Shown piece after piece: positions 1 through 34,784 of a stretch of DNA of 64,000 nucleotides (positions are counted from its first letter, which is position 1; every line of letters starts with the position of its first letter). Source of the stretch: Halanaerobiales bacterium. Lineage in GTDB: Bacteria > Bacillota > Halanaerobiia > Halanaerobiales > M55B127. The DNA lies in contig JAXHLT010000003.1 of assembly GCA_034521955.1 (NCBI GenBank), forward strand, positions 4,735-68,734, in the 5' to 3' direction. The notes below the pieces were generated by a model. That model was not told the origin of the DNA, searched no databases, and saw only the letters and a list, made by a program, of their open reading frames with translations. Made by a program: the position numbers and the translations under genes.

Positions 1-43
1 TAGTAAGATACATGTGATATATATCACTTAAAAAATAATAAAT

Positions 44-144
44 ACTCCGAGTCTTATAATCCTAAAGAAAATATTGCAATCAATGGAACTAAGACCGACA
101 GGGTATCTTTGGAAACATAGATGCCTCCCAAGGTGGAAAGGAGT
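44..144 (+). promoter_or_regulatory. Moco/Tuco (molybdenum/tungsten cofactor) riboswitch candidate, aptamer
   Basis: P1 ACUCC(44-48)/GGAGU(140-144). GAG junction. Stem GUCUUA(51-56)/UAAGAC(90-95). GACCG. Hairpin GGUAUCU(102-108)/AGAUGCC(119-125) followed by UCCC and GGAAAGGAG. The same layout with compensatory changes recurs at 19651-19752. It lies 5' of an AOR-family operon. Confidence 0.7.
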
Positions 145-190
145 AGCGGTAAGTTAGTCAAAAGAATCTTATTTGCGCTTTCCTTTCGAA

Positions 191-230
191 AAAAAGCACT
201 TTTTAAATAAATAATAAAGAGTGCTTTTTT
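191..230 (+). terminator. Intrinsic terminator/attenuator (expression platform of the leader)
   Basis: Stem AAGCACU(194-200)/AGUGCUU(220-226) followed by a U-run to 230. It sits between the aptamer and the RBS at 244-250. CUUUCC at 178-184 could compete with the GGAAAG of the aptamer. Confidence 0.65.
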
Positions 231-259
231 ATATGCAAACAATGAGGAGGTATGTATTT

Positions 260-934
260 ATGTCAAAAGAGAACCAAGAATCCAAGAACTTTATGCAGCG
301 TCCGACAACTCGTCGTGAATTTATCAAAAAGAGTGTAGAGGGTGCTGCCGGTGCAGCAGTATCATTTTCAATTTTAAATTTATTTACTGATTCTGCTCAA
401 GCACAGGGAATTAAAACAGCAGATGGTATTGTAATAGTTGACCCTGTTAAATGTACCGGTTGTAGAAGATGTGAGACAAATTGTACAGCATTTAACGATG
501 GAAAAGCTCACCCTTATATTTCACGAGTTAAGGTTGGACCAAACTACAACTTTGGTAAAAACGGACCATCATATAATTACAGATATGGTGATGGTAACTT
601 AGGAGACTTTACCATTGTTGGAGAAACTTGTAGGCAGTGTGAATCTGCAAGGTGTATCAGTGCTTGTCCTATGGATGCAATTTCAGTTGATGAAAAGACA
701 GGTGCAAGGGTAATTGATAAGAAAAAATGTGTAGGTTGTGGAAGATGTGCAGTTGCATGTCCATATGATATTCCTACTATTGACCCTGAAACTAAAAAAT
801 CAACAAAATGTACACTTTGTGAAGGAGAACCAACATGTGCTGCAGGTTGTCCGACTGGAGCTATTGAATTTGTTCCTTGGGAAGATGTAGAAATGGCATT
901 AATTGAAAGAGAAAACTTAATAGAAAATAACTAA
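260..934 (+). CDS. Tat-signal 4x[4Fe-4S] ferredoxin-like electron-transfer subunit (DmsB/NrfC/YdhX-like)
   Basis: RBS AGGAGG then ATG 260 (the track ORF starts further upstream at 221). N-terminus TTRREFIKK plus a hydrophobic stretch plus AQA gives a twin-arginine signal. Four Cys clusters: CTGCRRCETNC, CRQCESARCISACP, CVGCGRCAVACP, CTLCEGEPTCAAGCP. Confidence 0.85.
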   Translation: MSKENQESKNFMQRPTTRREFIKKSVEGAAGAAVSFSILNLFTDSAQAQGIKTADGIVIVDPVKCTGCRRCETNCTAFNDGKAHPYISRVKVGPNYNFGKNGPSYNYRYGDGNLGDFTIVGETCRQCESARCISACPMDAISVDEKTGARVIDKKKCVGCGRCAVACPYDIPTIDPETKKSTKCTLCEGEPTCAAGCPTGAIEFVPWEDVEMALIERENLIENN

Positions 935-951
935 AATAGGAGGTAAGAAGT

Positions 952-3036
952 ATGCCAAAATATCAAGGTTGGGCTGGAAAGATTTTACGTGTAAATTTAT
1001 CTAACGGTTCCATTACTACTGAAAATACAGTTAAGTATAAAGATTATATAGGTGGAATGGGATTAGGATATAAAATAATGTGGGACGAAGTAGATGAAAA
1101 TACCAAACCATTTGATGAGGAAAACAAGATTGTGTTTGGTGCAGGACCATTAACAGGTACAGGAGCACCATGTACAGCAAGAACAAACATAACTTCATTA
1201 TTACCTGCTAATCCACAAAATTTAATTGGAGATTCACATATGGGAGGAAATTTTTCTCCAGAGATGAAGTATGCTGGTTATGATGCAATCATAATTGAAG
1301 GAAAAGCTTCAAGACCAGTATGGTTAAGAATAGAAGATGACAAAGTATCCCTTGAAAGTGCTTCCCGTTTATGGGGACAGGGTATCTTTGATACAACTGC
1401 TAATATAGCTTCTATGATGGGTAAGGAAGCCCAGGTTGCTGCAATAGGTCAGGCTGGTGAAAACCAGGTTCCACTTTCCACTATAATGACAAATGGAAAC
1501 CATTCAGCTGGTGGACATGCGGGTATTATGGGTTATAAAAATCTTAAAGCGATTGGTATAATTGGAACTCAATCTGTTAAATATGCAGCAGATAAAGAAG
1601 ATTGGATAGAATTAAATGAATCAGTAATGTCAATAATTGGTGCAAATAATCAGCATGTTGTACCAAGTACACCACAGCCATGGGCTGAATTCCATGATGC
1701 TTCAAGTCGCTGGACTGCTCAAGAAGGACTTTATTGGGGAGCAGCTGATCAAGAAATAGAAACTGGTATTTGTAAACCGGAAGATACAAATCGAATTGGT
1801 TACAGAACTATGAAAGCAATTAAAGACTTAGGTCCAATCTCTGAAGACTACACAGTTCGAATGGGTGGATGTCAATCTTGTCCAATCCGCTGTCATTCAA
1901 GTGTTAAAGTACCAGAATTAGAAAAGTATGGAGTATCTCCATATGTTTCAAATACATGTGTAGGATTTTGGAGTCATTGGTATGTAAATCAAAATGCTGA
2001 ATCAGAAAAAGATAATTTCTTAAATAAGACATTAGGTGCTCAATTAGCTGATGATTATGGTCTTTGGTTTAATTACGGTCAGTTAGGAAGAGACTTAAAA
2101 TATCTATATGATAATGGAATATTTGAAGAAGTACTTCCTGAAGATGAATATAATGATATTCCTTGGGATCTATATGAAGTTGGAGATCCAGCATTTTTAG
2201 TTGATTTCTATAGAAGATTAGCTTATCGTGAAGGTGAAATAAGTCATATCAGTGATGGCTCAGCAGCAATAGCAGAACGTTGGGATTTAGGTGATGATTA
2301 CTGGAATAGTAAAACAAATAAATTATGGTCACGTATGGGCTATCCTTTACATCATGCCAATGAATCAAATGCTCAGGTTGGTACTTTAATCAATACAATA
2401 TTTAACCGTGATCCAATGTGTCACTCACATCAGAACTTTATTGGAAGTGGTTTACCAACAAAACTGCAAAAAGAAATTGCTGCAGAAACTTGGGGTTCAG
2501 AAGATGCTATTGATGTTCCTGCTAATTATACTCCAATGAATCGTGCAAAAGCTAAATTTGCAAAATGGAGTTTAATTAGAAATGCACTTCATGACTCAAT
2601 GACAGTATGTAACTGGATGTTCCCAATGGTTACATCACCACTTAAGTCAAGAGATTATCGTGGAGATACAACCATTGAAGCTAAATACTTCTCATTAGCT
2701 ACAGGTATGGAGGTCAGTGAAGAAGAACTAGATAAAATTGGTAGAAAAATCATGACCTTACACCGTGCAATGACAGTAAAACAGATGGGAACAGTTGATA
2801 TGCGTAATGAACATGATAGAATTACAGATTGGGTATATGATATGGATCCTGATAAAAACGCATTTGAAGCTGGTACAATTAAGATGGATAGAGAAGATAT
2901 GGAAACAGCAAGAACAATGCTTTATGAAGAATTTGGCTGGGATCCTAAAACTGGTGCTCCAACAGCTGAAACGTTAGATGAACTTGGATTATCAGATGTT
3001 AAAGAAGAGCTAGCCAGTAAGAACTTGTTACCATAG
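952..3036 (+). CDS. Aldehyde:ferredoxin oxidoreductase (AOR) family Mo/W-pterin enzyme, long YdhV-like form
   Basis: 694 aa. AOR-type N-terminus (GWAGKILRVNLSNG, GAGPLTG) and [4Fe-4S] motif CQSCPIRC. It is about 90 aa longer than classical 605-aa AORs. It has no signal peptide of its own. RBS AGGAGG lies 8 nt upstream, and the gap to the Tat-signal FeS gene is 17 nt. Confidence 0.85.
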   Translation: MPKYQGWAGKILRVNLSNGSITTENTVKYKDYIGGMGLGYKIMWDEVDENTKPFDEENKIVFGAGPLTGTGAPCTARTNITSLLPANPQNLIGDSHMGGNFSPEMKYAGYDAIIIEGKASRPVWLRIEDDKVSLESASRLWGQGIFDTTANIASMMGKEAQVAAIGQAGENQVPLSTIMTNGNHSAGGHAGIMGYKNLKAIGIIGTQSVKYAADKEDWIELNESVMSIIGANNQHVVPSTPQPWAEFHDASSRWTAQEGLYWGAADQEIETGICKPEDTNRIGYRTMKAIKDLGPISEDYTVRMGGCQSCPIRCHSSVKVPELEKYGVSPYVSNTCVGFWSHWYVNQNAESEKDNFLNKTLGAQLADDYGLWFNYGQLGRDLKYLYDNGIFEEVLPEDEYNDIPWDLYEVGDPAFLVDFYRRLAYREGEISHISDGSAAIAERWDLGDDYWNSKTNKLWSRMGYPLHHANESNAQVGTLINTIFNRDPMCHSHQNFIGSGLPTKLQKEIAAETWGSEDAIDVPANYTPMNRAKAKFAKWSLIRNALHDSMTVCNWMFPMVTSPLKSRDYRGDTTIEAKYFSLATGMEVSEEELDKIGRKIMTLHRAMTVKQMGTVDMRNEHDRITDWVYDMDPDKNAFEAGTIKMDREDMETARTMLYEEFGWDPKTGAPTAETLDELGLSDVKEELASKNLLP

Positions 3037-3138
3037 TTAAAATATATCTCAAGATTTAATTTAAATTAAGTAAAATAGGGAACTGCTTATAATATTTTAT
3101 AGGTAGTTCCCGATATAAAAATTAAGGAAGTGTGAACT

Positions 3139-3672
3139 ATGGGTAATAATAATATAGAAAAAAATATTTTAGATATTATTACAAAATTGGTTAGAGATAG
3201 ATCTGCTCAAGCTCAAATTACTACTTTAGATGAAATAAAAGAAAAAGTTTCTAATTTAACAGATGAAGAATTTGAAGATAAAATTGAGATACTCAAAACT
3301 GATGATAAGTATAAAGATATAAGGGTTTTGAGTGGTAAGAAGGGCAGATATTTATTTTCAGATAATGATATGACATTAAAATATGCAAAACTTATGGCTC
3401 AAATTGAAGAAAATGATGTAAAAGGTTTAATAGCAAAAACTGTAAGAGAAGATTCAAAAATATATCCAAGACCTACAGATACTACAGTATTTAATAAAAG
3501 CCCTTTCTATTTAGAAGATGATGTACTAATAGATGTTATTGAACAGATGAAAGATGAAGAGGAATATAAAGATATACAAGAAGTTGAGGCTTCAAATGGT
3601 GCTTTATACCTTTTTTCCAATAAACATATGGAAAAGATCATGCTATTGGACTTACAGAATGGGTTGAAGTAA
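3139..3672 (+). CDS. Hypothetical acidic protein (accessory to the AOR module, function unknown)
   Basis: 177-aa ORF with RBS AAGGAAG and no motif I recognise. It occupies the position that ydhW has in E. coli ydhYVWXUT, but homology is not established. The 3' end is uncertain: after the A4 run at 3632-3635 the +1 frame reads KDHAIGLTEWVEVIRKETP up to TAG 3690-3692. Confidence 0.5.
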   Translation: MGNNNIEKNILDIITKLVRDRSAQAQITTLDEIKEKVSNLTDEEFEDKIEILKTDDKYKDIRVLSGKKGRYLFSDNDMTLKYAKLMAQIEENDVKGLIAKTVREDSKIYPRPTDTTVFNKSPFYLEDDVLIDVIEQMKDEEEYKDIQEVEASNGALYLFSNKHMEKIMLLDLQNGLK

Positions 3673-3703
3673 TCAGGAAAGAAACACCGTAGGAGGATCA
3701 TTA

Positions 3704-4409
3704 ATGAGAAAACTTAAACCAAATCATATAAAAGGAAAAACAAATGTATGTGAAGAGACACCAATTGATTTAACAGTAAATGGAAAAGATATTGTTACTT
3801 TTATGTGTACACCTCAAAATTTAAAAGAATTGGCAGTAGGATATCTTTATATACAGGGAATTATTAATGAAGTAGATGAAATAAACTATTTAGCAGCTTG
3901 TGAAGATATGGATACAATAAATGTGGGTGTTAATGGTAAATTAGATGAGTCTTACGGTAAATTAAAAAGATGTATTAGCAAGTAGTTGTGGAAAAGCACT
4001 TGATGATGATAAATTAAGAGATTTAGGTAAGGTGGATTCTAAGATAAAAATTCCTCTTAGTAAGATTAAAAAAATAGCAAAAAAAATGTTTTCAAATACA
4101 GTTTTATATAAAAAAACTGGTGGAGTACATTGTGCAGCTATATCAGACTACAGTGATTTAATTCATCTAAAAGAAGATGTAGGTAGACATAATGCTGTTG
4201 ATAAAGTAGTAGGACAGTCTATTTTAAGTGACTTAGACTTTTCAAACAGTATCATATTTACCTCAGGACGTATTTCATCAGATATGGTATTAAAAGTGGC
4301 TACTTCTAAGTTTCCAATTGTAGTATCTAGAAGTATTCCTAGCAGTCTTGCTTTAGAGATTGCTGAAAAAGCAAATATAACTGTTATTGGAAGAATCATG
4401 CGCCTGTGA
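3704..4409 (+). pseudogene. fdhD: FdhD-family sulfurtransferase, split by a 1-nt frameshift (possible sequencing error)
   Basis: Track ORFs 3704-3985 and 4032-4409 form one protein. The frame changes in the A5 run 3964-3968, after which the sequence reads KDVLASSCGKAL. C-terminal motifs GGVHCAA and GRHNAVDK are typical of FdhD. Confidence 0.75.
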
Positions 4410-4475
4410 ACCTATTATTTACACAAAACCAGAGAAGAATAATTTGTGACTAAAAAATTATAAAGGAGGATGCAT

Positions 4476-4670
4476 ATGATGTTTGGTAAATTAGGTCCAA
4501 TGGAACTTGTATTAATCTTAGCAATTGCATTAGTAATTTTTGGACCTTCAAAACTTCCTGACATAGGAAAAGCATTTGGTAAAGCAATTAGACAGTTTAA
4601 AGATCATGCAAATGATATTAAAGATAGTGCAGATATAAATGAAGAAAAAAGTAAAAAAGAAGCAGAATAA
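4476..4670 (+). CDS. tatA: Twin-arginine translocase subunit TatA/E
   Basis: MMFGKLGPMELVLILAIALVIFGPSKLPDIGKAFGKAIRQFK is a canonical TatA TM segment plus amphipathic helix. RBS AAAGGAGGA at 4462-4470. The start could be 4476 or 4479. Confidence 0.9.
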   Translation: MMFGKLGPMELVLILAIALVIFGPSKLPDIGKAFGKAIRQFKDHANDIKDSADINEEKSKKEAE

Positions 4671-4692
4671 CTTAGTATAGGGGATGAATTAG

Positions 4693-5403
4693 TTGAGTGA
4701 TATTGAATTACCTTTAATAGAACATATAGCTGAATTAAGAAAACGGTTGCTAACTATAGTTGGTATAGTTATAGCTGGTACTATAGGTAGTTATTTATAT
4801 ATTGAAAAACTTATAGAACTACTATTAGCTCCAGTTAGAGAACTAGATTTCATTTATTTAACTCCTCCAGAGTTATTTTTATCATATTTAAAGATAGCCC
4901 TGGTAGTCGGTGTTATTACAACATCCCCTATAATTTTCTGGAATTTTTGGGTGTTTATAGTTCCGGGACTAAAGAAAAAAGAAAAGAGATACTTGGGATT
5001 ATCGATATTCATGGGTTATTTTCTGTTTTTATTAGGAGGATATTTTGCATATAGAATAATTATACCAATTACTATTGACTTTTTTGTTAAGTTACAAACT
5101 CCAGTAATACAACCACAGTTTTCATTTGGAAGCTATACTGGTTTTATTAGTTCTATTTTGTTGTCCTTTGGTATAGTTTTTGAATTACCGATTTTAATAG
5201 CGCTCTTGACTAAGTTTAATCTTATCAGAGCTGCTACTTTAAGAAAATATCGTAAATACCTAATTGTTGTAATATTTATAGTAGCATCATTATTATCTCC
5301 ACCAGATGTAATATCACAACTTTTACTTGCAGCACCACTTTTAGTTTTATTTGAAATAAGTGTGTTGATATCAAGTAGAATTGGTAAAAACAAAGATTAT
5401 TAA
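4693..5403 (+). CDS. tatC: Twin-arginine translocase subunit TatC
   Basis: 236 aa with 6 predicted TM segments. N-terminal LPLIEHIAELRKRL is a typical TatC start. TTG start with RBS AGGGGA. Confidence 0.85.
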   Translation: MSDIELPLIEHIAELRKRLLTIVGIVIAGTIGSYLYIEKLIELLLAPVRELDFIYLTPPELFLSYLKIALVVGVITTSPIIFWNFWVFIVPGLKKKEKRYLGLSIFMGYFLFLLGGYFAYRIIIPITIDFFVKLQTPVIQPQFSFGSYTGFISSILLSFGIVFELPILIALLTKFNLIRAATLRKYRKYLIVVIFIVASLLSPPDVISQLLLAAPLLVLFEISVLISSRIGKNKDY

Positions 5404-5434
5404 AGATGGTTAACAAATATATGAAGAAATATTA

Positions 5435-5472
5435 AAAAGGTCAGTATCATTGATTTGATACTGACCTTTTTT
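5435..5472. terminator. Bidirectional intrinsic terminator
   Basis: AAAAAGGUCAGUAUCA-loop-UGAUACUGACCUUUUUU. This is a perfect long stem flanked by an A-run and a U-run, between convergent tatC (+) and the 5501-6007 gene (-). Confidence 0.85.
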
Positions 5473-5500: not shown

Positions 5501-6007
5501 TTAATTTAGAAAATACAGTTTTTTGTTTAATATTTTTATAGTAAAGTTTAATACTATCCCTACAAATAATCCTTCAATACAGAATAATATTAATAATCTA
5601 AAATTATTGTAATTTACAATCGTTAAAAGGACATTTAATATATTTGTTCCAAGAAATAGATCTGTTAAATATATGGATAAATAAAAACCTAAAGCAAGTC
5701 CTAAAGATAGAATGATGATCTTAATATATTTGTTAAGATTAATCTTGGAATATAATACTAATATTAAAGATATAATAATATATAAAACTATAAAAACAAG
5801 TTGTTGTATAAAAAACAACATAATAATAATTAAAAGAGTGATCACAATAGAAATACTTTCTAAAAGATTAAACATCTTAAAGTAAATGTAAAGAGTAAGT
5901 GGTACAACAATACTATTAAAAATATTTATACTTCCTCTGAAAAGATTAAAGGAGATAATTATTATTACTAGTGAAACTGCTCCATAAGTTATACTTTTTA
6001 ATTTCAT
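5501..6007 (-). CDS. Hypothetical polytopic membrane protein
   Basis: 168 aa, about 5 hydrophobic segments, RBS AAGGGGA upstream of the ATG. No family recognised. Confidence 0.55.
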   Translation of the reverse strand: MKLKSITYGAVSLVIIIISFNLFRGSINIFNSIVVPLTLYIYFKMFNLLESISIVITLLIIIMLFFIQQLVFIVLYIIISLILVLYSKINLNKYIKIIILSLGLALGFYLSIYLTDLFLGTNILNVLLTIVNYNNFRLLILFCIEGLFVGIVLNFTIKILNKKLYFLN

Positions 6008-10373: not shown

Positions 10374-11004
10374 CGATTTTATAACCAGGTCTAGTTATTA
10401 TTATTTGGTCTAATTTTTATACTTAAAATGTAAAAAAATTACATATTATACAACAATTTTAAAGGTATTTAGCTGACTGCATTTAATATATAATATATAT
10501 CTTATAAATATTGAGTAGCGTTAGAAATACTTTAATGGTTTATCAATTTAATAAATTTTGATGAATATATTACTATATAAATGGTTGTTAAAAATTTGAT
10601 GAAATTATACCAAGTAAATTTTCGATACGGGTAGTAGTAATTATTGTTGAATAAAGGGTGGATATTATTAATAAAAATGATATAATAAATATAAAGAAAG
10701 ATTCTCTTATTCAAGTGAAGATAAAGAAGTAGTATTAATTAATGCAATTATAAAAAAATCTAAAAATGATATTAGATAAATAAAGAATATAAAAAACTGT
10801 TGAAAATTGTTCATGTAAATATAAAGATAGGATTGAACTGCTTAAAGCAAACTATATTCTACAGCTAGTTATTTATAATAATTTTTTAAGTAAAACAATT
10901 AGAAAAAAGTATTTAAACTATCATAAATATTAACAGTCATTAGAATAATTTTTTTAAAAACTGTTATTGAATTTCTTGAAGAATAGGATCTTTGAGGAGG
11001 GAAG

Positions 11005-11458
11005 ATGATGAGAAAATTATTATTAGCTGTTGATGGATCAAAAAGTTCTCACAAAGCTGCACAGAAAGCTGCTGATCTAGGAAGTGCAATGGACTGTGAA
11101 ATAACTATTATTACTGTATTAGATATTTCTACATTAGAATTAAGTGAAATTCAATCTTATAGACCAATAGATTCATTAGAAGAGCTTATTAAAAGAAACA
11201 AAAAAGAACTTCAAAAAAAAGGAGAAAGTATTTTAGAAGAGGCAGAAAAATATTTTGATAAAACAGATATTGAAGTAAAACAAGGTTTTAGAATATGGAG
11301 ATCCTGCAGATATGATTTGTGAGTATGCTGAAAATAACGGCTTTGATATTATAGTACTAGCAGATAAAGGTATTGGAGGAGTTAAAAGATTCTTTCTTGG
11401 TAGTATAAGTGATAAGGTTTTAAGACATGCCAAAGTTTCAGTATTAGTTGTTAAGTAA
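11005..11458 (+). pseudogene. Universal stress protein (UspA family), 1-nt frameshift
   Basis: MRKLLLAVDGSKSS... continues after about 11284-11289 in the +1 frame as VLEYGDPADMICEYAENNGFDIIVLADKGIGGVKRFFLGSISDKVLRHAKVSVLVVK. Confidence 0.75.
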
Positions 11459-13310: not shown

Positions 13311-14322
13311 ATGGAAAAAACAAGCTATATATGTGATAGTATTTTTATCAATAGTTTTTTCTTTGAAAATATTCATATTTACATTAACACCTTTCTTTCT
13401 AGCTTTGCTTTTAACAGTTATTATTGATAAACCTGTATGTGTGTTATCAAAAAAGATTCCCAGAAATATTGCTGTATTAATAATGATCTTAATAGTAATA
13501 ACAATAATGATTTTACTTTCAATTTTTATAATTACAAATACCGTATATGAATTAACTTATCTTTCTAGAATATCTTCCTGAATATAGAGATCAAATGGTT
13601 GAATTTATAGATGATCTATTACTTAAACAACAAGAACTTTTTGATAGAATGCTGATATTTGTATCAAATGTTTTAAGAAGAATATTGGATAATATTTATA
13701 GAAGGGGAGAGGACTTTGTATCAGATACAATCAGATTGGTCATTAAATTTAACACTATATATACCTGGTTTTATAATAGTCTCACTTTTCACAATTATAA
13801 CAACCTTTTTCTTAAGCAAGGATAAAAAGTTGATTTTAAAATATATAAAGTCAAAGAAAAAATAGCTAAAGTGTTTGAATCTAGTATTGTAAAAGATATA
13901 TTTAGTTATCTTAAGGTGCAACTACTTATTATTACAAATACAACAATATTGACCCGTGATTACATTTTCATTATTAAACTATCCTTATGTCATATTAATA
14001 GCGTTTTTATGTGGTATTTTAGATATGATACCTGGTTATTAGTCTGGAGCTTTACTCTGCCTCTAATTTATATAACATTTTAACAGGTAGTGCTAGAACT
14101 GCAGCAATAATATTTATACTTTATTTAATATTGGTTAGTGCTAGACCATTTCTTGAAAGTAAGGTTTTAGGTAAAAACATTGGTGTTCATCCCATAGTAT
14201 TATTATTTGGAATCTATGTAGGATTAATAACTTTTGGTCTGCAGGGTATTATTATAGCTCCTTTATCTATAATCACTTTTAAAGCACTATTAAAAACAGG
14301 CCTAATACCTGTGAAATATTAA
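13311..14322 (+). pseudogene. AI-2E family transporter / YtvI-like permease, fragmented into 4 or more pieces
   Basis: Track ORFs 13333-13581, 13595-13825, 13871-14083 and 14131-14322 are all hydrophobic and collinear. The last piece (GVHPIVLLFGIYVGLITFGLQGIIIAP) is a typical UPF0118 C-terminus. Confidence 0.6.
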
Positions 14323-18268: not shown

Positions 18269-19576
18269 ATGGGATTTATAATAAATAACCCACAGCTTTG
18301 GAGAAAAAAAGGTATAGATGATAAATTAAATGAAGAAATTAAGACAAAGGTAGATAAAGATGGGAAACTAGAACTGTCAAAAGAGATTGTAGATAAATTG
18401 AATTTAAAACCAGAAACAGAACTTAGATTAAGAAATGATGGAGATACACTTATGATAAAAAGAGCTGATCCTTTGTTAAGTCGTGTATATATAGAACCTA
18501 CAACCGACTGTAACTTAAACTGTAAGACCTGTGTAAGACATTCCTGGGATGAAAAAATCGGGAGAATGGATTTACAAGATTACATAAAAATTATTGATGA
18601 TTTAAAAGAATTTGATAATTTAGATAGGATAAGTTTTTGGGGAATAGGAGAGCCTCTTTATCATCCTGATATTGTAGAGATGATTAAAAGGGCTAAACAA
18701 TTAAATGTTAACACCCAAATTATTACAAACGGTCTTTTACTAGATGAAAGTATGTCTCGGAATTTATTAAAAGCAGGATTAGATAGTCTAGTTGTTTCAT
18801 TAGATGGTACATCTCCAGAAACGATGGCTGATATTAGATCTGGAGCTAATCTAGAAGAGATAATTAATAATGTAAAAACATTTAAGAATCTAAAGTCAAA
18901 ATATAATGATAATAAAACAGAAATCGGAATAGAATTTGTAATTATGAAATCTAATGTAGGCGAGTTAAAAGACTTAAGAAAATTAGCACTTGAATTAGGT
19001 GCGTCTTTCATATTTTTAACAAATCTATTACCTTATACAGAAGCGATGACAGATGAAATACTTTATTCATTTAGTAATAGTAGGTCACAGCCAGAAGAAA
19101 GAACAGAACATAGACCTGAAATATATCTTCCGCCAACAGATTTAAATAAAGATACAGTAAATTCAATTTCAAAGATAGTGGGTAAAACCAGTTCAATTAG
19201 TACGAGACAGGTCCCTTTCGATCCCCACAATGGGTACTGTAAGTTTGTAGAACAGGGTAGTGTAGCTATTAATTGGAAAGGTGAAGTTAGTCCATGTGTG
19301 CCATTAATGCATAGTTATGACTGTTATATAAGAGAAAGAAAAAAACATTTTAAATCTTATGATCTTGGTAATATACAAGATAGTGCATTAGAGGATATAT
19401 ATAATAGTGGAGAGTTTAAAGAATTCAGAAAGAAATTAATTGAATTTCCTTTTTCAGAATGTACACAGTGTTCAGGGTGTGATATGTCTAAAACAAATGA
19501 AAAAGACTGTCATGGGAATACCTTCCCTGTTTGTGGAGACTGTTTGTGGGGTAAGGGAATTGTGCAATGTCCATAA
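18269..19576 (+). CDS. Radical SAM/SPASM-domain protein with N-terminal AbrB/SpoVT-like domain (candidate tungsten-enzyme maturase)
   Basis: The rSAM cluster is CNLNCKTCVRH (Cx3Cx2C). The C-terminus is Cys-rich and SPASM-like (CKFVEQG...SPCVPL...CTQCSGCDM...CHGNTFPVCGDCLWGKGIVQCP). The N-terminus KLELSKEIVDKLNLKPETELRLRNDGDTLMIKR is AbrB-like. Confidence 0.75.
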   Translation: MGFIINNPQLWRKKGIDDKLNEEIKTKVDKDGKLELSKEIVDKLNLKPETELRLRNDGDTLMIKRADPLLSRVYIEPTTDCNLNCKTCVRHSWDEKIGRMDLQDYIKIIDDLKEFDNLDRISFWGIGEPLYHPDIVEMIKRAKQLNVNTQIITNGLLLDESMSRNLLKAGLDSLVVSLDGTSPETMADIRSGANLEEIINNVKTFKNLKSKYNDNKTEIGIEFVIMKSNVGELKDLRKLALELGASFIFLTNLLPYTEAMTDEILYSFSNSRSQPEERTEHRPEIYLPPTDLNKDTVNSISKIVGKTSSISTRQVPFDPHNGYCKFVEQGSVAINWKGEVSPCVPLMHSYDCYIRERKKHFKSYDLGNIQDSALEDIYNSGEFKEFRKKLIEFPFSECTQCSGCDMSKTNEKDCHGNTFPVCGDCLWGKGIVQCP

Positions 19577-19608: not shown

Positions 19609-19650
19609 CTTATAAAGGAATTTTAGGTTTTCCCTGTAATTAATATAATA

Positions 19651-19752
19651 TACCTTCGAGTCTTGGAGCCTAAAAAACTAATAATGTTTTATGGCAAATT
19701 GACCGCTGGGTTATAGTAGAAATACTATAGCCTCCCGTGTTTGGAAAGAAGA
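19651..19752 (+). promoter_or_regulatory. Moco/Tuco riboswitch candidate, aptamer (second copy)
   Basis: P1 CUUC(19654-57)/GAAG(19748-51). GAG. GUCUUG/CAA..GAC. GACCG. Hairpin GGUUAUAGUA(19709-18)-GAAA-UACUAUAGCC(19723-32), then UCCC and GGAAAG. RBS AAAGGAGG at 19761-68 follows directly, with no terminator. Confidence 0.7.
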
Positions 19753-19776
19753 TAAATCATAAAGGAGGTATAATTA

Positions 19777-21583
19777 ATGGGGAAAATTCAAGAATTTTCA
19801 GTACTAAGAGTTGATTTAGGAAAACAAACGGTAAAAAGAGAGATAATTGCAGGTGAAAGAGTAGAAAAGTATTTAGGAGGTAGAGGATTAGCATCAAAAA
19901 TTCTATATGATGAGATTGATCCCAAAGTAGATCCTTTAAGTCCTGAAAACAAACTAATTTATGCTACAGGTTTACTGACTGGTACAGCTGCCTCCACAGG
20001 TGGACGTTATATGGTTGTTACTAAGGGTCCATTAACCGGTACAATAGCAAGTAGTAATTCCGGTGGATTTTTTGGTGCAGAGCTTCGTTTTAGCGGTAAT
20101 GATATGATTATCTTTGAAGGTAAGTCTGATAAACCGGTTTATCTTTCAATCAAGGGAGATAAAGCAGAGTTAAAAGATGCCTCACATATTTGGGGTAAAA
20201 AAGTAAATGAAACAACAGATATGTTAATAGAGGAATTTGGTGATGATGGTGCTAGGGTAAGTTGTATAGGTCCTGCGGGAGAAAACCAGGTAATGTTTGC
20301 ATCTATTATGAATGAAAAACATAGAGCTGCCGGTCGTACAGGTGTTGGTGCAGTTATGGGTTCGAAAAATCTTAAAGCTGTTATAGTTAAATCTGATGAG
20401 AATAAAGTTAATTATGATAAAGAAAGTGCAATGGAAGTTGTTAGAAAACAAACTAAAATGTTAAAAGAAGATGGTGTTACAGGTGAAGGACTCCCTGCTT
20501 TAGGAACAAAAGTATTAGATAACATTATTAATTCTAATGGTCTTTATCCATCAAATAACTTCCAGTTTGGAACATTTGATAAGACTGAAGAAGTATCTGG
20601 AGAGGCTTTAGTTGAAAAAGGTTACTTACAGTCTAATAAAGGTTGTTATGGATGTCCAATAAGATGTGGACGTGACGTAAAACTACCTAATGGTAGATCT
20701 GGTGAAGGACCTGAATATGAAACAGGTTGGGCCTTTGGAGCAGACTGTGGAGTTGATGATTTAAATGCAATAACTGAGGCTAACTTTTTATGTAATGAAT
20801 TAGGACTCGATACAATAAGTGCCGGTACTACAATAGCCTGTGCAATGGAATTGATATGAAAACGGTTATATAGATAAAGAAGAATTAGAAAATGGTCCTG
20901 AACTTAATTTTGGTTCTTCTGAATCAATTATTTATTATACAAAGCAAATGGCTTATAGAGAAGGTTTTGGAGACAAATTAGCTATGGGATCATATCGATT
21001 AGCTGATTCTAAAGGTCATCCTGAACTTTCAATGTCAGTTAAAAAGCAGGAACTTCCTGCATATGACCCAAGAGGAGTTCAAGGTCAAGGTTTACAGTAT
21101 GCAACTTCAAATCGAGGAGGTTGTCATGTAAGAGGTTATATGATATCACCTGAGGTAATTGGTGCTCCTGAGAAGTTAGATCCACAAGAATTAAAAGGTA
21201 AACCAGAATGGGTTAAAATATTCCAGGACTTAACAGCTGTAATAGATTCAGTGGGAATGTGTTTATTTACTTCATTTGCATTAGGTTTAGATGACTATAA
21301 AGAGATAGTAAATGCTGGAACAGACTTTAATTATACTTCAGATGAACTTTTACAAGCTGGAGAAAGAATATATAACTTAGAAAGAAAGTTTAATTTAGAA
21401 GCCGGAATAAGTCCTAAAGAAGATAAACTTCCTAATCGTTTTACAGATGTTCCACTTCCTGATGGCCCACAAAAAGGTGTTGTTTCTAAATATAAAGAAA
21501 TATTACCTAAATATTATGAAGAAAGAGGATGGACTCCTGAAGGAGAAATCAGTACTGATAAAATTAATGAATTAGGATTATAA
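19777..21583 (+). pseudogene. aor: Tungsten-type aldehyde:ferredoxin oxidoreductase (classical ~602 aa), interrupted by one extra base
   Basis: Track ORFs 19777-20859 and 20948-21583 form one protein. Skipping A 20854 gives ...CAMEL-YENGYIDKEELENGPELNFGSSESIIYYTKQMAYREG.... Motifs present: GGRGL, GPLTG, CYGCPIRCGR, EYETGWAFGADCG, GLDTIS. Confidence 0.85.
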
Positions 21584-21588
21584 TAAAT

Positions 21589-21870
21589 ATGAAAATAAAA
21601 GTAAAATTATATTCTTTATTTAGATTAAATCTAAAAACTTCTGAAGTAAACTATGAGTTCGAAAAAAATATAAAGGTTAAAGATTTAATAGATAGACTTG
21701 ATGACGATTTTTCAGGTTACTTTTCTGAAAAATTATTGGAATCTGGGGAAATCAAAACTGGTTCCATTATTTTAATTAATGGCAAAAATATTTTTCATAT
21801 TGATAAATTAAACTCTAAAATTAAACATGGAGATATTGTTACAATGTTTCCACCATCTGCAGGAGGATAG
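21589..21870 (+). CDS. MoaD/ThiS-family ubiquitin-like sulfur-carrier protein
   Basis: 93 aa ending ...HGDIVTMFPPSAGG (C-terminal Gly-Gly). It starts 5 nt after the aor stop. Confidence 0.75.
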   Translation: MKIKVKLYSLFRLNLKTSEVNYEFEKNIKVKDLIDRLDDDFSGYFSEKLLESGEIKTGSIILINGKNIFHIDKLNSKIKHGDIVTMFPPSAGG

Positions 21871-25464: not shown

Positions 25465-26480
25465 GTGATAGAATTGAGTAAAGAAAAGCTTATAGATGTT
25501 AATAATTTAGCAACATATTTTCATACTGAAGAAGGAACAGTAAAAGCGGTTGATGGAATAAGTTTTGATATCTATCCTGGAGAGACACTTGGAATAGTAG
25601 GTGAGTCAGGTTGTGGTAAAAGTGTAACATCACTATCCATTATGAGACTTATCGAATCTCCACCTGGACAGATCGAAAATGGCGAGATTATGTTTAACGG
25701 TAAAGACTTAACAAAGTTAAGCCAAAAGAGATGAGAAAGATCAGAGGTAATGATATCTCAATGATTTTTCAGGAGCCAATGACCTCCTTAAATCCGGTAT
25801 ATACCGTTGGAAATCAAATTATGGAAGCAATTTTAATCCATAAAGATGTAAACAAAAAAGAGGCCAGACAGCAAGCAATAGATATGTTAACAAAGGTAGG
25901 AATACCGCTTCCTGAACAGCGTGTAGACGAATATCCTCACCAGTTAAGTGGAGGTATGAGACAGCGTGTAATGATAGCAATGGCCCTATCATGTGATCCA
26001 CAGCTTCTAATCGCAGATGAGCCAACAACAGCGTTAGATGTAACAATTCAGGCTCAGATATTAGAGCTGATGAATGGTCTAAAAAGACAGTTCGGAATGG
26101 CAATAATGATGATCACTCACGATTTAGGTGTAATAGCAGAAGTATCAGATCGTGTAGCGGTAATGTATGCTGGAAAGATAGTAGAGTACACAGATGTTGA
26201 GACACTTTATGGAAATCCAAAACATCCATATACCTGGGGATTAATGCATTCAATTCCTCATATCGAAAAGGACTTAGACAGATTATTGGCGATACCGGGT
26301 AATGTACCGAATCCGCTTAATTTCCCAACTGGATGTAAGTATAACACAAGGTGTCAATTTGCAACAGATAAGTGTAGAACAGATGAACCTGACATAGAAG
26401 AGATAGAAGAAGGCCATCACGTAGCGTGCTGGCATATAGATAAGCTAGAAGAAGCCAAAAAAGAAAAGTATAGTGCTTAA
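25465..26480 (+). pseudogene. oppD: Oligopeptide ABC transporter ATPase OppD, 1-nt frameshift
   Basis: Track ORFs 25465-25734 and 25731-26480 form one protein. The frame breaks at the A4 run 25724-25727 (expected [21 protein letters not shown]). Walker [17 protein letters not shown], and a C-terminal oligopeptide-type Cys-rich tail. Confidence 0.85.
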
Positions 26481-30978: not shown

Positions 30979-31269
30979 TGTCGACTACTCCTTTTTAATA
31001 GTTATTTAACTAGACAATAGTTAAGCTCCTGAAAAAATCCAGGAGCTCTGTGAAAGGATGTATATATTAACTTAGACATAAATGATTAAAATCCTTTTAT
31101 TTAAATTCAATTTATTTATTATTCTTGATTATTTGACTAAACTAATATCTGATTTATAAATTATCTGAAAATTATAATAAATATTGTTATATTTGCAGGA
31201 AAAAAGTATAGTTCTGTTTAACCTATTAAGTACAAGTGAAATAAATATCAAAGGGGTGTTTATAAAAAT

Positions 31270-32155
31270 ATGGAAGATAAATTCAAAGGAGCTTTAATGG
31301 GTTTAATAGTAGGAGATGCTCTTGGTGCACCATTTGAAGGAATGAAAAGTAAAAATATTAAATTTGATAATAAGATGGAAAGTGGTGGACCACATAATAT
31401 AAGAGCTGGCCAATGGACAGATGATAGTTCGATGGCTCTTTGTTTAGCTGAAAGTTTAATAAAAGATGGTTTTGATTTAGAAAGTCAGATGAATCGTTAT
31501 GTTAAATGGTTTGAAAACGGTTATCTAAGTTCCAAAAAGAAATCATTTGGAATAGGTAGTAATACTAGTTTAGCAATAACAGATTTCATACAAAAAAATG
31601 AACTGCCTCCTCAAAGAGAAAAAGCAGCAGGTAATGGCAGTATAATGAGATTGGCACCTATTCCCATGTATTACATAAATAACTATGATAAAACAGTTTA
31701 TTATTCAGCCAAAGAGCTCTATAACAACACATAATAATATTATGGCTATAGATTCTTGTAAATTTTTAGGTGCATTTATACATTATGCGATAAATGGTAA
31801 GGATAAAAACTTTTTAATTGGTGATGTATATAAAAATATGGATCTTGATGAACGTGTTTTAGATAGAGTTAAGGGTGATTTTAAAAATAAGGATAGAAAA
31901 GATATTAATTCAGACGCTTTTGTGTTAAATACCCTTGAAGCTAGTTTATGGTGTTTTTATAATTCAGATGATTATGAATCTGCTGTAAAGCTTGCAGTTA
32001 ATTTAGGAGGAGATACTGATACAACAGCAGCAGTTACTGGACAAATGGCGGGATCATTTTATGGTAGCAGTAGTATTCCAAAAGATTGGATTAATAAATT
32101 AGCAAAAAAAGAGCTTATACTAAGTCTAATAAGAGGATTAAAACAAGCACTATAG
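31270..32155 (+). pseudogene. ADP-ribosylglycohydrolase family protein (DraG/ARH-like), 1-nt frameshift
   Basis: GALMGLIVGDALGAPFEG...WTDDSSMAL, then after about 31711-31716 the +1 frame reads SSITTHNN...GGDTDTTAAVTGQMAGSFYG. Confidence 0.8.
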
Positions 32156-33279: not shown

Positions 33280-33800
33280 TGAAAACATTGGAGAAATTAT
33301 TTTTAGTGAAAAGGATATTAAAAATAGGGTTTTAACAGTAGCTGAAGAGATTAGTAAAGATTATAAAAATACTGAACCAATTTTGATAGGAATTTTTAAG
33401 GGATCTGTATACTTTTTGTCAGACTTAAGTAGGTCTTTAGAATATTGAACATAATATTGATTTTTTATCAATTGGAAGGTTTAAAACAACGGAAGAGTCG
33501 AAAGAAAAGGTTAAAATAACAAAAGATTTAGATTTAAGTATTAGAAATCGAGATATAATTGTAATTGAAGATATTATAAGAACTGGTTTAACTCATAGTT
33601 ATATTTTAAAAAATTTAAAACCTAGAAGACCCAATAGTATAAATTTATGTGTTTTTTTAGATTGTAAAAAACAGAGGTTGGTTGATTTACCTATTAAATA
33701 TAGTGGATTTGATCTTGATGATCGCTTTGTAGTTGGTTATGGATTAGATTATGAAGAAAAATATAGGAACTTGCCATTTATTGCAGAGTATATAAAATAA
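33257..33800 (+). pseudogene. hpt: Hypoxanthine phosphoribosyltransferase, 1-nt frameshift
   Basis: IIFSEKDIKNRVLTVAEEISKDY...ILIGIFKGSVYFLSDL, then after about 33438-33446 the +1 frame reads IEHNIDFLSIGRF...DIIVIEDIIRTGLT...VVGYGLDYEEKYRNLPFIAEY. Confidence 0.85.
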
Positions 33801-34336
33801 AAAAAGGCTCCAACGAACCTTTTTGATTCATTATCCTTTTAGCAATCTTCTTTTTCACATCGAAACCTATTTAAATCATCTAAAATCCTTTCTTTAGATC
33901 TTCTTCGGTCAATATAGAGTATATTTATTGATGTTAGTACTAAAACAAGTACCAACTATCTATAAATTTCTCCTATTAACCTCCAACCCAAAGTCCAGAT
34001 GTTACCGAACAATCTAGGTATTCGATAAAGATTGTTACTTAGGATAAATTCTCTTAAGTATTCCTTGGAGCCTATTTTTATTATAGTCTACATATCTTTA
34101 ATAGTCAAAGATGTGAGTAAAGCTATTAAGAGCAGTCACAATAAAATAACTAATTAATTCTTCTAAATAGTTCTTTTATCTTAAAATATCAAATAAATAT
34201 GTAATATATAAATAAATATACATTGATTATTGATATATAATAGTGGTAAGATTATATTATAGAGTAAATATAATAAGTTATATTTATTTTTCATAAATAT
34301 ATTTTAGATATTCTCTTATGAAAAGGAGGAAGTAAA

Positions 34337-34784
34337 TTGTTAAAAGGATTTAAAAGTTTTATCTTGAAAGGTAATGTAGTGGAAATGGCTGTAGGTATTA
34401 TTATTGGCTTGGCATTTAATAAGATTATATCATCTTTTGTTAATGATGTATTAATGCCTCCTCTTAGTTTGATAATTGGAAAAATAAATTTTTCAAATTT
34501 ATATATCAATTTAAGTCAAAGAGAATTTGAATCTTTAGCTGTAGCTGAAGAAGCAGGAGTTCCAATAATTAAATATGGACTTTTTATAAACACACTTAGT
34601 TGATTTTATAATAGTTGCTTTTGTTTTATATATGGTTATAACCTATTATAATAAATTAAATGAAAAAAAGAAAAAAGAAGAAGTTGCTAAAGCATCGGAT
34701 ACTAAAGAATGTCCTTATTGTTTTTCAACTATTAATATTAAAGCTACTGTTTGTCCAGAATGTACAACTAATTTAGAAAATTAA
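34337..34784 (+). pseudogene. mscL: Large-conductance mechanosensitive channel MscL with C-terminal CxxC..CxxC tail, 1-nt frameshift
   Basis: MLKGFKSFILKGNVVEMAVGIIIGLAF... The frame changes at about 34596-34600 to [13 protein letters not shown]...[24 protein letters not shown] start after AAGGAGG. Confidence 0.85.

Follow-up and report, generated by a model that had tools for sequence, protein, structure and literature searches.

A stretch of 64,000 nucleotides from contig JAXHLT010000003.1 of a Halanaerobiales bacterium, hereafter the window, carries close to its start a compact unit (33–5471) in which a leader riboswitch, six same-strand genes and a terminal hairpin are all present. The genes are ydhY, ydhV, ydhW, fdhD, tatA and tatC, and the unit can be read, with a probability of roughly 0.8, as a compact YdhYVW-type oxidoreductase module—that is, a member of Class V, or clade 41, of the tungsten-containing oxidoreductases (WORs)—whose products are predicted to be exported by the adjacent twin-arginine translocation (Tat) proteins TatAC. 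The first-pass annotation of this DNA had placed six same-strand genes between a riboswitch and a bidirectional terminator; that layout stands, except that fdhD is not one open reading frame (ORF) but is spread over three frames.

Gene content of the module and its relatives

The first gene, ydhY (260–934, on the forward strand like the other five), codes for the ferredoxin-like subunit (WorS), a protein of 224 aa in which four cysteine motifs of the [4Fe-4S] type can be read directly. It scores 221.6 bits against NF007382/PRK09898 (cut-off 213) and is 37% identical to YdhY of Escherichia coli versus 28% to YdhX, which marks it as an orthologue of YdhY and not of YdhX, the counterpart originally proposed. 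Its N-terminus, MSKENQESKNFMQRPTTRREFIKK...TDSAQA followed by QG, displays a TTRREFIKK motif, a hydrophobic h-region and an AQA cleavage site, as read from the sequence, and the twin arginine (RR) is kept in the N-termini of 74 of 77 YdhY orthologues, bearing out the description of a four-[4Fe-4S] protein with a twin-arginine signal (TRREFIKK...AQA). The YdhY of the window has neither a lipobox nor a C-terminal anchor, the AxA cleavage site being present instead. Among the relatives, a lipobox-like L-x-G-C follows the Tat h-region in most YdhY proteins outside Halanaerobiales (N-termini of survey loci L007–L080) and in that of E. coli, with an AxA site replacing it in Halanaerobiales and Cetobacterium; this suggests that the lipobox-bearing orthologues are Tat-exported lipoproteins.

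The second gene, ydhV (952–3036), codes for the putative tungsten- or molybdenum-bis-pyranopterin catalytic subunit (WorL), a protein of 694 aa with AFOR_N and AFOR_C domains in Pfam and no signal peptide of its own. It scores 1152.7 bits against the equivalog NF007354/PRK09849 (cut-off 868) and is 57% identical to YdhV of E. coli K-12 over its full length (697 columns), and both the CxxCxxxC motif for a [4Fe-4S] cluster and the clade-specific metal ligand Cys336 (in NTC) of the E. coli protein align in it, the latter being invariant in an alignment of 16 homologues. Solved structures of aldehyde oxidoreductase (AOR), FOR and WOR5 match it mainly over the N-terminal ~220 residues, with C-terminal alignments at most weak, and the longest sequence match among solved structures is that of BamB (residues 8–334). 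These marks of its sequence place the large subunit in the YdhV clade (Class V WOR, clade 41). The pairing of a YdhV-type enzyme of the AOR family, itself without a signal, with a Tat-signal ferredoxin was correctly recognized at the outset.

Downstream of ydhW and fdhD, which are taken up below, lie tatA (4470–4670; PF02416 at 63.6 bits, NF011430 at 81.9 bits and TIGR01411 at 64 bits against 53.9) and tatC (4693–5403, with a TTG start; PF00902 at 208.6 bits and TIGR00945 at 201.6 bits against 132.7). A terminator-like hairpin (5434–5471), found by a terminator scan and usable from both strands, closes the unit with a 16-bp stem set between A and T runs. The module genes encode no cytochrome and no NrfD-like or transmembrane subunit, in agreement with the initial remark that a membrane quinol-oxidising or cytochrome subunit is lacking, and the module thus offers no counterpart to the membrane association by which Class V is characterized.

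Relatives were collected by scanning genomes with an alignment of YdhV; the best 80 of 385 loci, a sample biased toward relatives of the window, were scanned with the six window proteins, and gene counts refer to the 49 loci whose flanks reach at least 2.5 kb upstream and at least 3.6 kb downstream. YdhY is found in all 49, YdhW in 46, TatA in 44, FdhD in 34 and TatC in 27, with TatA or TatC in 47, and the exact order Y-V-W-FdhD-TatA-TatC recurs in 21 of them, spanning Halanaerobiales, Clostridia, Cetobacterium and spirochaetes. Sedimentibacter/Tissierella-type loci show another layout, W-TatA-Y-V followed by a 362-aa poly-ferredoxin, and lack FdhD. The closest genomes among the best 80 of 385 are Halanaerobiales metagenome-assembled genomes (MAGs) and Halanaerobium, at 76–94% identity. 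The genes beyond the module vary even among close relatives, and therefore the six genes travel as a unit. Likewise, the adjacency of fdhD and tatAC to the enzyme genes, which had been suspected of being meaningful, is no coincidence, as it extends over Halanaerobiales, Clostridia, Fusobacteriota and Spirochaetota. The survey shows in this way that the accessory genes, namely those for YdhW, for FdhD or XdhC and for TatA/C, belong to the system. Clustering of ORFs further picked out MoeA (often in 2–3 copies), a Tup/Mod-like ABC trio, the 362-aa poly-ferredoxin and an XdhC-family protein as recurrent extra neighbours. In four loci (L066, L068, L074 and L077) two YdhV copies stand side by side, and in L066, L068 and L074 the second has its own YdhY, giving tandem YdhY-YdhV pairs.

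The WORs have been split into five classes, of which Class V equals clade 41, i.e., the YdhV clade (PMC13328260, Front Microbiol, June 2026), and the same study describes in Cetobacterium somerae the CsWOR41 cluster, an L/S/W operon with TupABC upstream and FdhD, TatAE, TatC and MoeA downstream. That cluster, which is locus L035 of the survey and has a YdhV 61% identical to that of the window, shares with the module the same genes in the same order (Tat-signal S, L, W, FdhD, TatA/E and TatC). It differs in the added tupABC upstream and two moeA genes downstream, neither of which the window module has, whereas the latter is distinguished by its P3-less riboswitch leader and by its frameshifted ydhW and fdhD. 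Another parallel is the E. coli ydhYVWXUT operon, which shares with the module the Y-V-W order as well as the Fe-S motif and Cys336, and the orthologous YdhW proteins are 31% identical (E 3e-28) next to the values for YdhY and YdhV given above. The E. coli operon, unlike the module, also encodes another ferredoxin (YdhX), the putative cytochrome YdhU and YdhT, lacks fdhD and tat genes, and codes for a YdhY with TRLEFL in place of the RR motif and with an LLGC lipobox-like motif. Judged by its gene content, the module is a Halanaerobiales member of an already described gene cluster, and the first-pass view of it as an undescribed system has to be given up in light of the same neighbourhood in C. 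somerae (PMC13328260). What the window adds is a minimal Halanaerobiales version of six genes that has a riboswitch leader and lacks a membrane subunit, and its value lies in the question of what Class V WORs do. The pattern of accessory genes amounts to a concrete recipe for heterologous expression and suggests a route to active enzyme.

Frameshifts in ydhW and fdhD

The third gene, ydhW (3139–3693 when corrected), appears in the window as an ORF of 177 aa (3139–3672) that had been set down as an unknown. It is in fact a member of the YdhW family (NF007411, E 9e-41), and its apparent length results from the loss of one A (−1) from the run at 3632–3635, which cuts the ORF short; the corrected protein has about 184 aa and ends in ...TEWVEVIRKETP / ...DHAIGLTEWVEVIRKETP as in relatives, with the stop codon at 3691–3693. 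With this YdhW, frameshifted though it is near its C-terminus, the module possesses the further partner besides L and S that is expected of Class V. The fourth gene, fdhD (3704–4449), for a predicted sulfurtransferase or cofactor chaperone, is split over three frames by two +1 insertions: 3704–3985 holds the N-terminal 88 codons, 3966–4400 the middle of the gene, including the SSCG loop, and 4402–4449 the last 15 codons. The first insertion falls in an A run (A5 at 3964–3968 versus A4 in L001) and the second near 4401–4403, both being called by DNA alignment with the intact genes of L001, L083 and L002, where L001 comes from a Halanaerobiales MAG and has a YdhV 94% identical to that of the window. 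Two Pfam FdhD-NarQ fragments cover profile positions 1–63 and 103–222, and the repaired protein scores 200.5 bits against TIGR00129 (cut-off 140.9). The fdhD of the window is thus without an intact reading frame, and the intact dedicated FdhD originally assumed is not what the letters hold.

The three frameshifts are likely to be assembly errors rather than real inactivation, because ydhW and fdhD are both intact in L001, L002 and L083, the repaired FdhD and YdhW are well conserved (91% and 81% identity, respectively, with their L001 counterparts, and free of other stops), and many unrelated genes of the window are broken too. At least seven other window genes are split or truncated, a state that suggests either an indel-prone assembly or a decaying genome. 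The latter leads to the strongest of the rival explanations, a decaying pseudo-operon in which the ydhW and fdhD frameshifts are real and the enzyme can no longer mature. Three indels within about 800 bases of accessory genes are what such decay might produce, and several indels in the window lie outside homopolymer runs, which is less typical of simple miscalls and tells against assembly error. Still, ydhY, ydhV, tatA and tatC are uninterrupted, the two repaired proteins retain the conservation just described, and unrelated genes throughout the 64 kb are interrupted with similar frequency, pointing to the assembly and not to selective loss; a pseudo-operon is therefore unlikely.

The broken genes elsewhere in the window lie at 10996–11319, 14029–14319, 25731–26480, 31240–32152, 33441–33797 and 34322–34600. 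They comprise genes for Usp (profile positions 1–86 of 141), an AI-2E transporter of which only a C-terminal fragment is present, an oligopeptide ABC ATPase without its N-terminus, an ADP-ribosylglycohydrolase in two frames, a phosphoribosyltransferase fragment and MscL (1–77 of 123).

Proposed cofactor maturation and export

In the mechanism proposed for the module, YdhV would receive a tungsten (less likely molybdenum) bis-pyranopterin cofactor in the cytoplasm, with FdhD as the chaperone for sulfur transfer and/or cofactor insertion and with possible help from YdhW. The cofactor-loaded YdhV would bind YdhY while still in the cytoplasm, and the adjacent minimal TatAC would export the pair, with YdhV riding on the YdhY signal, until cleavage after AQA frees a soluble periplasmic complex—Halanaerobiales being diderm. 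There are precedents for both elements of this scheme: a two-component TatA/TatC is encoded beside its substrate in phoD-tatAd-tatCd of Bacillus subtilis, and hitchhiker export occurs in E. coli hydrogenase-2 and DmsAB. The module resembles these in having TatAC beside the predicted substrate and in a catalytic subunit without a signal that would leave the cytoplasm together with its signal-bearing partner.

Several points weigh against this mechanism. Export, hitchhiking, metal content and activity are all predictions; the absence of an anchor or lipobox in YdhY fits poorly with the "membrane-associated" label of Class V; should ydhW and fdhD truly be broken, this organism may have an inactive module; and FdhD is missing from 15 of the 49 related modules. 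The last of these can also be taken in favour of a different explanation, in which fdhD and tatAC are general-purpose copies that merely stand beside ydhYVW, FdhD serving a formate dehydrogenase elsewhere and TatAC all Tat substrates of the cell. That the only known role of FdhD is as the sulfurtransferase of formate dehydrogenases, for which it takes sulfur from IscS in E. coli (PMC13653126), favours general-purpose copies as well, and the count of tat loci covers the 64-kb window alone. Within that window there is no other RR-signal protein or tat gene, and should YdhY be the sole Tat substrate, "general" and "dedicated" would come to the same thing. Further, the adjacency persists through four phyla in which the surroundings of the six genes differ, and XdhC replaces FdhD and never joins it. 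A location of fdhD beside a formate dehydrogenase in relatives had been named from the start as an outcome that would undo the assignment; in those relatives fdhD sits in the module, with no formate dehydrogenase adjoining it in the loci inspected. Taken together, these patterns make general-purpose copies improbable. A metagenome scan for similar TatCs, which was of low power, returned generic TatCs of 31–46% identity, none of them beside a YdhV among the matches listed.

Beside these modules, FdhD and XdhC exclude each other. Among 79 clustered loci, 45 have FdhD only, 11 XdhC only, none both and 23 neither (Fisher p = 3e-5, uncorrected for shared ancestry). The XdhC proteins, built of XdhC_C and XdhC_CoxI domains, always adjoin the module while the genes beyond them vary, and they stand next to fdhD-less modules in L045, L058, L060, L062, L063, L067, L070, L073, L074, L078 and L080. 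The XdhC family comprises chaperones for the sulfuration and insertion of the molybdenum cofactor (Moco). Because FdhD and XdhC thus alternate and both are Moco chaperone families, the YdhV cofactor would appear to need a sulfuration or insertion step. As far as could be found, this either-or pattern beside such modules is not reported in the literature, in which no Moco chaperone has been identified for YdhV (PMC9103625) and FdhD is said only to be one that "might be required" in C. somerae (PMC13328260).

The FdhD of the module is, when repaired, a member of the same family as E. coli FdhD, keeping the GRHNA(V/L)DK motif, but the two are only 26% identical. Its SSCGKA aligns with the Cys121 loop of the E. 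coli protein, and in all module-linked FdhDs inspected the Cys121 position is kept while the second cysteine, Cys124, is gone. Another difference lies in the presumed client cofactor, which would be nucleotide-free bis-molybdopterin (bis-MPT) and not bis-MGD, the bis-molybdopterin guanine dinucleotide form. In eight spirochaete loci (L015, L017, L022, L033, L044, L054, L056 and L059) there are FdhD-like genes of 28–37% identity in whose tblastn alignments the SxCG cysteine loop is not recognisable; their products may be cofactor carriers dead for sulfur transfer, or the alignment may be poor.

YdhW, for its part, can be counted as a core factor because it is near-universal in the modules. An AlphaFold2 model of P0122, an intact homologue 84% identical to the YdhW of the window, has two tandem winged-helix-like units (predicted local distance difference test, pLDDT, 82.7), in agreement with an internal sequence repeat (YKDI...G.YLFS). 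When the model was searched with Foldseek in the PDB, it yielded only weak winged-helix hits (best E 1.7e-3, TM about 0.3) to ESCRT-II, RNA polymerase III subunits and the Chlorobium tepidum hypothetical protein 1T6S, and no chaperone of the TorD/DmsD/NarJ type was among the 50 matches listed. The protein has no signal peptide, and it may act as an escort or in assembly.

From these observations it might tentatively be proposed, at somewhat less than even odds, that the YdhV clade needs a sulfur-transferring chaperone (FdhD for most lineages, or XdhC in the Sedimentibacter/Tissierella-type modules), with YdhW acting as an assembly or Tat-escort factor. If true, the role of FdhD would reach beyond formate dehydrogenases to a nucleotide-free tungsten- or molybdenum-bis-pyranopterin cofactor. 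When L and S of CsWOR41 were expressed without W or FdhD, the sole attempt published so far, L alone was recovered. It co-purified with IscS, the cysteine desulfurase of the host, regarded by the authors as unrelated (PMC13328260); since FdhD takes its sulfur from IscS in E. coli, this co-purification may deserve a second look.

Riboswitch leader, metal and reaction

The leader riboswitch (33–159, forward strand) matches the Moco/tungsten cofactor (Tuco) family RF01055 of Rfam at 67.2 bits, against a gathering score of 36, over model positions 1–135, with the P3 positions deleted in the alignment, and is accordingly an aptamer without the P3 stem. It is followed by an expression platform (175–232, forward strand) consisting of a conserved anti-aptamer segment (175–187), complementary to the 3' strand of the aptamer, directly before a terminator hairpin with a U-run (189–232). 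The same arrangement is repeated in L001, L002, L043 and L005, where sequence changes preserve the pairing in ViennaRNA minimum free energy (MFE) folds. The leader fits an attenuator-like logic in which binding of the cofactor would permit read-through; on the other side, the antiterminator helix that this would require is weak and lacks conservation, and folding alone gave no ON/OFF direction.

A P3-less element immediately precedes ydhY in six spirochaete loci and in all Halanaerobiales loci for which upstream sequence is available, and in other lineages the riboswitch stands behind the module or, in divergent orientation, upstream of it. These positions come from a covariance model built from P3-less copies only, which may detect copies with a P3 stem less well. 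A second P3-less Moco/Tuco riboswitch of the window (19642–19767, 75 bits) is placed directly upstream of a classical AOR.

The metal of the module is more likely to be tungsten than molybdenum, to judge from its leader and its relatives: tungsten is favoured because the riboswitches are P3-less and because of the CsWOR41 data. Representatives of the P3-less riboswitch track Tuco metabolism (Regulski 2008), and the tungsten inference from P3 is only correlative. Two published results pull the other way, namely that deleting P3 alone did not switch specificity (Regulski 2008) and that E. coli YdhV prefers molybdenum (PMC13328260).

As for the reaction, it is probably not ordinary aldehyde oxidation. 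A plain aldehyde oxidoreductase is disfavoured because of the Cys-ligated site and a negative aldehyde screen: the YdhV clade, like BamB, has a protein cysteine as metal ligand and lacks the second-shell residues of aldehyde-oxidising AORs (PMC12096430), and the L subunit of CsWOR41 was inactive on 46 aldehydes (PMC13328260). The cysteine column does not fall within the BamB alignment obtained here, and BamB, in contrast to what is predicted for YdhV, is cytoplasmic, has BamC-I as partners and is without a Tat signal. The remaining rival, an aldehyde:ferredoxin oxidoreductase of the classical cytoplasmic kind that pairs with a ferredoxin and whose RR motif is fortuitous, can claim the AFOR_N and AFOR_C domains of YdhV, but is extremely improbable given the full-length YdhV equivalog found (by hidden Markov model score and identity) where a cytoplasmic AOR with insertions had been the feared outcome, the mainly N-terminal match to the AOR, FOR and WOR5 structures, the near-invariance of RR among the orthologues, the tatA or tatC adjacent in nearly all loci, the absence of the Cys336 ligand from aldehyde-oxidising clades and the negative screen.

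Some smaller features surround these main elements. The second AOR of the window is split by a frameshift near 20855 into ORFs at 19777–20859 and 20948–21583; a ThiS/MoaD-like ORF (21571–21867) comes after it and a radical SAM/SPASM gene (18269–19576) lies upstream. On the reverse strand, between tatC and an FtsA/PilM-like gene, there is a 168-aa multi-span hydrophobic ORF (5501–6007) without a Pfam or NCBIfam match; the syntenic relative L083 is without it and has the FtsA-like gene directly after tatC. Lastly, the 102-nt gap between ydhV and ydhW contains an imperfect hairpin (3078–3111; GGGAACTGC...GGTAGTTCCC) without a U-run, which was spotted by eye.

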